DNA of 64,000 nucleotides from Schmidtea polychroa. Its lineage: Eukaryota. The stretch is taken from positions 110,586,397 to 110,650,396 of the forward strand of contig CM097887.1 of the NCBI GenBank assembly GCA_044892525.1, given 5' to 3'. A program made the position numbers and the translations under genes. Under the pieces are notes generated by a model. It was not told the DNA's origin and searched no databases. It saw only the letters and a program-made list of their open reading frames with translations. This document shows, in pieces, positions 25,201 through 25,425 of this stretch. The first letter of the stretch is position 1. The number at the start of each line of letters is the position of its first letter.

Positions 25201-25425
25201 TGGTGGGTTACTGGTGGTTGAATGTTTAAGTGCTGTTACCAGCGTAACCCAGAATACAACATTGTTTTTCCGCTTGGTACCCGTTGAGCAATCAACGTTG
25301 GTACTGTACCAAGGGTTGAGTACTCGCAAAATGTGAGCGCATCGAGGCACTATAATTGTCGAGTACTCGATGGGTTCACGGACGCCGATAGAAGGCACGT
25401 GTCCGATTTGTTTCGGTCCCTCGTC
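25201..25425 (-). ncRNA. Structured motif X, copy in element 2
   Basis: GGAC..TCGGACA-cgt-GCC TTCTATC GGC-GTCC; AACCC/GGGTT; CTTGGTAC/GTACCAAG; CTG-GTAA-CAG. Confidence 0.6.

Follow-up and report, generated by a model that had tools for sequence, protein, structure and literature searches.

A conserved, predicted three-hairpin RNA core at the LTR ends of giant gypsy-like elements in Schmidtea polychroa

Within a 64,000-nt stretch of Schmidtea polychroa DNA (the window), the end of a minus-strand long terminal repeat (LTR) carries motif X, which our covariance model depicts as a real, conserved three-hairpin RNA core (M1, M2, and M3). The overall modelled order is a chain of hairpins, M1-linker-M2-M3-M4, free of any nested pseudoknot. 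A covarying structure, formed on the RNA strand at the terminus of an element, was what an earlier note had read from the letters of this DNA, and on that central point it was right; as for the "new ribozyme or regulatory fold" proposed there, a regulatory fold is likely, whereas a new ribozyme is not favoured. Our leading interpretation, held tentatively and at a little short of even confidence, is that motif X may serve in cis, within the 5' leader, as a signal for packaging of the genome, and possibly also pair with the primer tRNA. The LTR and its surroundings contain the following features:

25201..30753, minus strand: solo LTR, 5.55 kb, TG...CA ends, assigned to a Burro-type giant gypsy element, inside the pol of an ordinary gypsy element
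25197..25200, partner at 30754-30757: 4-bp target-site duplication, read from ends and flanks
25495..25553, minus strand: three AATAAA hexamers, possible poly(A) signals, lying upstream of the motif
25536..26045, minus strand: ORF-B, a coiled-coil-like frame within the LTR, no Pfam match above cut-off
26312..26674, minus strand: ORF-A, 120 aa, with a basic stretch at its end, read from frame and Pfam search

Over 5.6 kb, the 25201-30753 stretch is 97.5-97.7% identical to both LTRs of a 36.7-kb element (G000:C4:57475307-57512016), the 5.6-kb LTRs of which are 99.5% identical, and a genome search with the window LTR returned 40 near-identical matches, with several same-strand pairs lying 30-31 kb apart. 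At 36.7 kb, this element has the long LTRs and the length (at least ~30 kb) of Burro elements, as have two further families of ~30 kb with 3.7-3.9-kb LTRs. Judged by its sequence, the parent of the window stretch is a Burro-type giant gypsy element: Pfam matches on the 36.7-kb element (CCHC gag, MATH, viral fusion glycoprotein, protease, RT, RNase H, integrase, ankyrin, and BIR/RING) include the Burro domain set, i.e., CCHC gag, MATH, an env-like fusion protein, PR-RT-RH-IN, ankyrin, and BIR, the domain make-up of these planarian elements having been described (PMC6431247). Its Gag has 19 relatives, found at 45-59% identity. BURRO1 is transcribed and PIWI-controlled, in an account whose consulted portion makes no mention of structure (PMC8532177).

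An 18-nt perfect complement of the tRNA-Pro(UGG) 3' end, the primer site, lies 8 nt past the 5' LTR end; since it is found just past the LTR end, motif X stands on the genomic-RNA strand, directly upstream of the primer site. The motif forms the last part of the LTR (the finding spans its final 225 nt), ~200-265 nt upstream of this site. All primer sites found were for tRNA-Pro, the search itself having been aimed at tRNA-Pro. Placement "downstream of ORF-B", as formerly described, is incidental: the motif sits at the LTR end by the primer site, and it is kept in a 1.65-kb-LTR family without an ORF-B match. The basic stretch closing ORF-A is one that we take to be AT-hook-like, and no ORF-B homologue was found among 62 candidates. 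A splice-acceptor-like stretch precedes ORF-B in two families, and ORF-A and ORF-B may be exons of one accessory gene. Between 300 and 700 nt past the primer site, five families (L005, L037, L181, L182, and L204) have in common a frame of ~160 aa, a region with a weak RING-like tblastn match in two elements. Separately, a tandem tRNA-Pro(UGG) array with a 475-bp unit lies at G000:C1:130.90-130.95 Mb, and its pattern has 2,167 matches in the genome.

Five copies of the motif had been proposed for the window. The 7-nt loop is indeed present at all five places; the covariance model finds three full copies, one that is internally deleted, and, near position 470, only a doubtful fragment:

25267-25407, minus strand: window copy of the finding, 94.3 bits
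10937..11144 (model 11001-11144), minus strand: copy at a sister-family LTR end, 107.6 bits, 10-nt deletion in M4
548..793 (model 646-793), minus strand: copy at a distant-family LTR end, 87.2 bits
15993..16128 (model 15993-16126), plus strand: copy with ~80 nt gone (part of M2 and M3), 24.8 bits
417..488, minus strand: doubtful, decayed M1 (first-hairpin) fragment, 13.3 bits, E 0.09

Each of the four non-doubtful copies is at an LTR end, and each belongs to a different family. The 417-488 fragment falls outside the LTR that ends at 548 and matches its best related copy at 79% over 39 nt (E 0.04); a genome search with window positions 400-900 returned no copy of it. LTR ends of different families occur within a few hundred bases of one another at window 15217-16128 and 10560-11144, as well as in L004, L031, L043, L080, L087, and L113, often on opposite strands, which suggests nested or clustered insertion. 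Elsewhere in the window are an 859-bp inverted duplication of 99.4% identity (55148-56004 and 63142-64000), within which lies a presumably transposase-like frame, and three palindromic stretches (2118-2416, 46257-46417, and 46695-46975).

The fold, as modelled on the window copy, is composed of these parts:

25415..25420, minus strand: upstream conserved hexamer, within 70 nt in 37/67 rows, uncoupled from the M1 3' strand
25379..25405, minus strand: hairpin M1, outer helix of 25401-25405 with 25379-25383, small internal loop
25394-25396 with 25384-25386, minus strand: M1 inner helix, closing the 7-nt loop 25387-25393
25372..25378, minus strand: conserved linker, complementary to primer tRNA-Pro T-arm positions 50-56, with which it may pair
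25318..25368, minus strand: hairpin M2, with a long stem that covaries, a tandem mismatch, a 1x3 internal loop that is conserved, and an apical stem-loop
25273..25313, minus strand: hairpin M3, lower stem and apical stem-loop both covarying, with a conserved 8-nt bulge
25205..25250, minus strand: terminal hairpin M4, 25244-25250 with 25205-25211, enclosing a GNRA hairpin at 25232-25243

The strongest covariation is borne by the central hairpin M2 (25318-25368), which had gone unmentioned, and several pairs covary in the long stem for which swapped strands had been reported. The small stem around the 7-nt loop is likewise well founded, being 95% paired in 39 near copies. Its surrounding helix, in turn, had been drawn with the wrong partner: the 3' strand pairs not with the upstream GGAC but with an adjacent GGAC (96% in the near copies; 87% over 67 rows). 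The proposed P1 does not covary: no coupling of its upstream GGAC motif to GTC is seen, 14 rows having the motif without GTC and 23 GTC without the motif, and the pairing value of 0.73 for the upstream-GGAC helix was set aside because it is confounded by a slipped G run. The reported CATT/AATG swap in this helix rests on the doubtful fragment near 470. In M1 itself, C-G/G-C and A-U/G-C swaps occur in the outer helix, the outer three pairs of which are 87% paired over 67 rows, whereas 1,000 row shuffles never exceeded 83% and slid versions gave 13-53%; this retest used clade-specific registers set by M2 type in 67 of 72 rows. M1 was not significant in the tree-based covariation test, in which the alignment is out of register at M1.

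At the 3' end, the GNRA hairpin is 93% paired, as the earlier note would have it, but is confined to the clade of the window copy, to which this form of M4 is specific; other families appear, by eye, to end in different terminal stems. AACCC/GGGTT, once proposed as P4, can pair (95%) but displays no compensatory change, and GGGTT can instead form 7 bp with a stretch at the LTR end (94% paired), the longer pairing and the one that fold prediction picks. TCGGACA with TGTCTGA, the proposed P2, is paired in 73% and has no compensation. At the other end, the upstream hexamer would be complementary to the D-arm or variable loop of the primer tRNA. By eye, ~30 nt upstream of M1, the hexamer is in a hairpin loop in two clades (L181, L185, L213, and L224), and the stem of that hairpin varies among families.

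Alignments were built from 174 pattern matches (21 of them without a first-hairpin match), of which 96 were distinct, yielding 32 representatives at 49% mean identity. On a plain MAFFT alignment, a tree-based scan of all column pairs placed Watson-Crick pairs of M2 in the top four positions (E 0.017, 0.083, 0.8, and 7). RNAalifold predicted only M2 (9 pairs, 6 with two-sided changes), in part because M1 and M3 are out of register between clades. The covariance model, built from 31 rows (two representatives left out and the window copy added), aligned 101 matches; on this alignment, 82.4% of cells pair versus 65.1% when shuffled and 37-42% when slid. For the covariation test proper, carried out with an in-house script rather than R-scape and on a larger alignment fitted to the structure, 67 representatives were kept from the best 90 rows. 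Of 10,440 column pairs, the six ranked highest were all model pairs, only one of them at E<0.05 in the all-pairs test; tested alone under the tree-based null, 11 of the 45 model pairs reached E<0.05 (5 in M2 and 6 in M3). Among the 10,440, no non-model pair was significant (best E 2.5), and there is therefore no sign of a pseudoknot.

Folding and base-pair statistics both point to the RNA strand. The window copy has a folding z of -3.4 on the RNA strand versus -1.8 on the other; over 34 of the 67 representatives, the means are -1.90 and -0.72, respectively, with -0.20 for upstream LTR. In 28 well-aligned pairs, 186 G-U cells face 53 A-C cells (126 versus 51 once a constant G-U is subtracted), an excess by which the RNA strand is favoured, in agreement with the G-U bias first noted from a few pairs.

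Across the genome, three core patterns gave 3,483, 6,076, and 5,585 matches (matches, not copy numbers) versus 0, 202, and 102 for reversed controls; a loose pattern, mostly chance at 19,433 versus 14,049 in the control, served only for finding new families. Identity among 12 family representatives (66 pairs) is 0.63 in the core versus 0.51 in upstream LTR, the latter equal to the shuffled level. Columns conserved in at least 90% of rows number 26 of 148, most in or beside loops; many of these columns were search anchors, so that their conservation is partly built in, and loci picked by primer site therefore constitute the independent evidence. A pattern of LTR end plus primer site, chosen regardless of the motif, gave 674 matches (control 1), and 28 of the 30 loci fetched by these features alone have the core at 76-139 bits, two of the 28 having belonged to the model training set; one of the two core-less loci displays an internal deletion. 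Each LTR of four whole elements has the core once, and their bodies are without it. The motif is also intact in a young, non-autonomous element of 15.6 kb (G000:C1:5728807-5744374; L398-L400) with 1.65-kb LTRs of 99.94% identity, an 877-aa gag-like frame, and a tandem repeat; searches of it for pol and ORF-B returned no match to either. The LTR end of this 1.65-kb-LTR family was seen in 18 of the 30 primer-site loci.

Beyond this genome, pattern searches returned 0 and 8 matches in viral contigs, 85 in metagenomes (80 of them scanned with the model), and 11 in prokaryote genomes, no true copy being present in any of these. The best model scores there were 22.6 and 21.2 bits, compared with 76-139 for true copies, and we treat such low-scoring matches as chance, selected by the pattern, in collections that contain little animal DNA.

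Rfam families, which presumably include hammerhead, hairpin, twister, twister-sister, pistol, and hatchet among the ribozymes, matched the motif neither in the window at E<=5 nor, at E<=10, in 20 loci from other families; the Rfam check thus gave no match to a known family. The sole window match was a histone 3' stem-loop, at what reads from the sequence as a histone H4-like gene (17703-18090, minus strand). A mir-753 precursor match of 81 bits lies at L276:935-996, ~130 nt beyond an LTR end. For bases upstream of the motif, a hammerhead-like look was considered and dropped, as they are not conserved and have no Rfam match.

Resemblance to the HDV-like ribozymes had been raised on the basis of helix order, and we compared the two feature by feature in 61 of the 67 rows, with the position label C24 and the J4/2 pattern as we take them to apply. 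The features themselves come from the published descriptions (PMC3774820 and PMC13635239). A 2-3-bp stem with a 7-nt pyrimidine-rich loop, resembling P3 and L3, is present in 50 of the 61 rows, although most clades have an M1 stem of 2 bp with an added bulge. In 54 rows, a G-purine step resembling P1.1 follows the stem by 6-7 nt, while GG exactly after the 7-nt strand is found in 6/61 rows, and P1.1 gives no covariation; active members show flexibility in P1.1 and P1 (PMC13635239, PMC3774820). Against HDV membership, (i) loop C24 is present in 0/61 rows and G25 in 1/61, (ii) a 7-bp P1 is found in 5/61 rows versus 6.9 from shuffled strands, the adjacent helix having 3-5 bp, and (iii) the J4/2 catalytic C followed by P2 is found in 11/61 rows versus 10.7 in the control. 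Alterations at such positions are costly, G25A strongly impairing cleavage (PMC13635239) and C-to-A and G-to-A changes in L3 leaving an R2 ribozyme inactive (PMC3774820). Together with the missing Rfam match and the want of any significantly covarying long-range pair, these failures refute the HDV-like helix order and pseudoknot, and membership of motif X in that family is extremely improbable. Motif X and the R2/L1Tc HDV-like ribozymes (PMC3774820, PMC13635239, PMC6765202) thus share a short stem with a 7-nt pyrimidine-rich loop, motif X being without C24, G25, a 6-7-bp P1, a J4/2 cytosine with P2, and the nested pseudoknot.

A self-cleaving ribozyme of a new class would cut in both LTRs to release a unit-length RNA, which may circularise and be copied from the primer site; env-bearing Burro elements would then replicate via unit-length, possibly circular, RNA of 14-31 kb. 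Consistent with this are the 26 highly conserved columns (of 148; partly search anchors), mostly at loops, the three loop-bearing helices, which could dock, and the hammerheads known from LTRs (PMC4918200). A ribozyme here would need the route taken by retrozymes, where R is lost through cleavage at two sites and the RNA forms a circle (PMC4918200). At G000:C1:77.27-77.32 Mb (L211, L212), five primer-site junctions spaced 13.55 kb apart mark a tandem array of five units joined by shared LTRs; in the two units that were read, one LTR serves both, and a comparison of 6.4 kb gave 100% identity. Such an array fits the retrozyme route but also recombination, by which tandem LTR arrays arise as well. 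One-unit spacing recurs in a further two junction pairs among the first 100. On the other side, no Rfam ribozyme matches at E up to 5-10, no pseudoknot covaries significantly, and cleavage in U5 would remove the R repeat required for strand transfer; for a circle of 26-31 kb, we know of no precedent. We regard this cleavage-based reading, both for the core and for the replication route, as distinctly doubtful. Plant retrozymes similarly have a conserved RNA motif in both gypsy-type LTRs, including those of non-autonomous copies (PMC4918200), but motif X has no hammerhead match and its elements measure 15-37 kb rather than about 1 kb.

Packaging is ranked first by analogy with Ty1, whose packaging and primer-binding determinants are at the RNA 5' end (PMC4974528). 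Since autonomous and non-autonomous elements alike retain the fold, on the RNA strand and at a constant spacing from the primer site, it presumably has to act in cis on the element RNA. Gag would pick out the genomic RNA for packaging via the motif X fold, and, with the fold in U5, only the 5' end of the genomic RNA would carry it; the three conserved loops may dock on one another or on Gag. As the primer tRNA anneals, its freed T-arm could pair with the single-stranded linker and so help reverse transcription to start. The motif lies in the genomic RNA's 5' region and is retained by non-autonomous elements, and the Gag carries CCHC knuckles; that the gag-only 15.6-kb element, with no pol match, keeps the motif is as expected of a cis signal. 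Poly(A) hexamers show a modest excess 75-150 nt upstream of the motif across 66 rows, a weak indication that would place the fold in U5; TATA and initiator motifs gave no positional signal. Retroviral packaging signals are mostly downstream of the primer site and have unpaired G. Against packaging, the conserved loops of motif X are G-poor, and the longest core palindrome measures just 4-8 nt in 58 of 66 rows, with no dimer signal evident. An IRES role is unlikely, given that the first long frame begins 300-1,060 nt past the primer site in those 14 of 18 loci that have one and that 3-24 ATGs occur in the first 600 nt in 18/18 loci.

The tRNA complementarity could instead be the main purpose, the fold being a platform for primer activation: after the 3' end of tRNA-Pro has settled on the primer site, the linker and upstream hexamer would pair with its T- and D-arms. 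A linker run of at least 7 nt matches tRNA positions 49-56 in 37 of 51 rows (18 on the antisense strand), the varying base of the linker faces a tRNA U, and the clade without linker and hexamer has some members with 8-12-nt D-arm matches near the LTR end; precedents are HIV PAS, the Rous sarcoma virus U5-TpsiC contact, and the Ty1 boxes (PMC3185550, PMC4974528). Shuffled tRNA segments nonetheless do as well in 12.5% (T-arm) and 32.5% (D-arm) of cases, which is not significant (51 of 67 rows), the linker is present in 49/67 representatives and missing in 18/67, and the conserved loops of M2 and M3 are left unexplained; primer activation as the principal role is unlikely. Slightly less probable again is control of RNA processing, in which M1 would present or hide a splice-donor-like site to govern splicing or the choice of poly(A) site between the 5' and 3' LTRs. 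A donor-like pentamer does occur in the M1 internal loop of 27/67 representatives, and the modest excess of upstream hexamers, along with foamy-virus poly(A) control as a precedent (PMC3694450), would fit; the window copy's clade, however, is without the M1 donor yet keeps the whole fold, and the foamy-virus donor is upstream of the poly(A) signal, whereas here the hexamers are upstream of M1.

The host element is already known, whereas the fold is absent from Rfam. Burro/GYPSM1, planarian giant gypsy-like LTR elements, are the same 30-37-kb host, with CCHC gag, MATH, fusion-glycoprotein env, PR, RT, RH, IN, ankyrin, and BIR/RING, described at the protein level, and with no LTR RNA structure, in the portion of that account consulted (PMC6431247). 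The yeast Ty1/Ty3 5' cis domain is likewise a structured 5' RNA tied to the primer site, with possible extra tRNA T-/D-arm pairing as in motif X (PMC4974528); the Ty1 signals, though, which include a pseudoknot, are located within GAG and downstream of a primer site of 10 nt (PMC4974528), while the motif X fold is upstream of a full 18-nt primer site and gives no pseudoknot signal. Drosophila gypsy has a second primer site (PMC1635307). HIV PAS and Rous sarcoma virus U5-TpsiC also have a short conserved T-arm complement near the primer site (PMC3185550); unlike PAS, the complement in motif X forms just a linker in a far larger fold, has been lost from one clade, and does not exceed chance. In the literature searched, no description of the motif X fold or of a Burro packaging signal was found; the original Burro paper (Grohme et al. 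2018) may cover LTR features.

Retroviruses and yeast Ty elements are known to have structured 5' signals, with Ty packaging sequences still poorly defined (PMC4974528). Here, natural copies by the thousand, spread over at least a dozen lineages whose flanks are unrelated, outline a 150-nt cis element at base-pair resolution. Motif X also provides a practical marker for Burro LTR ends and for non-autonomous derivatives. Ultimately, the motif bears on how the RNA of a 30-kb retroelement is selected and primed, and on whether the fold is catalytic.
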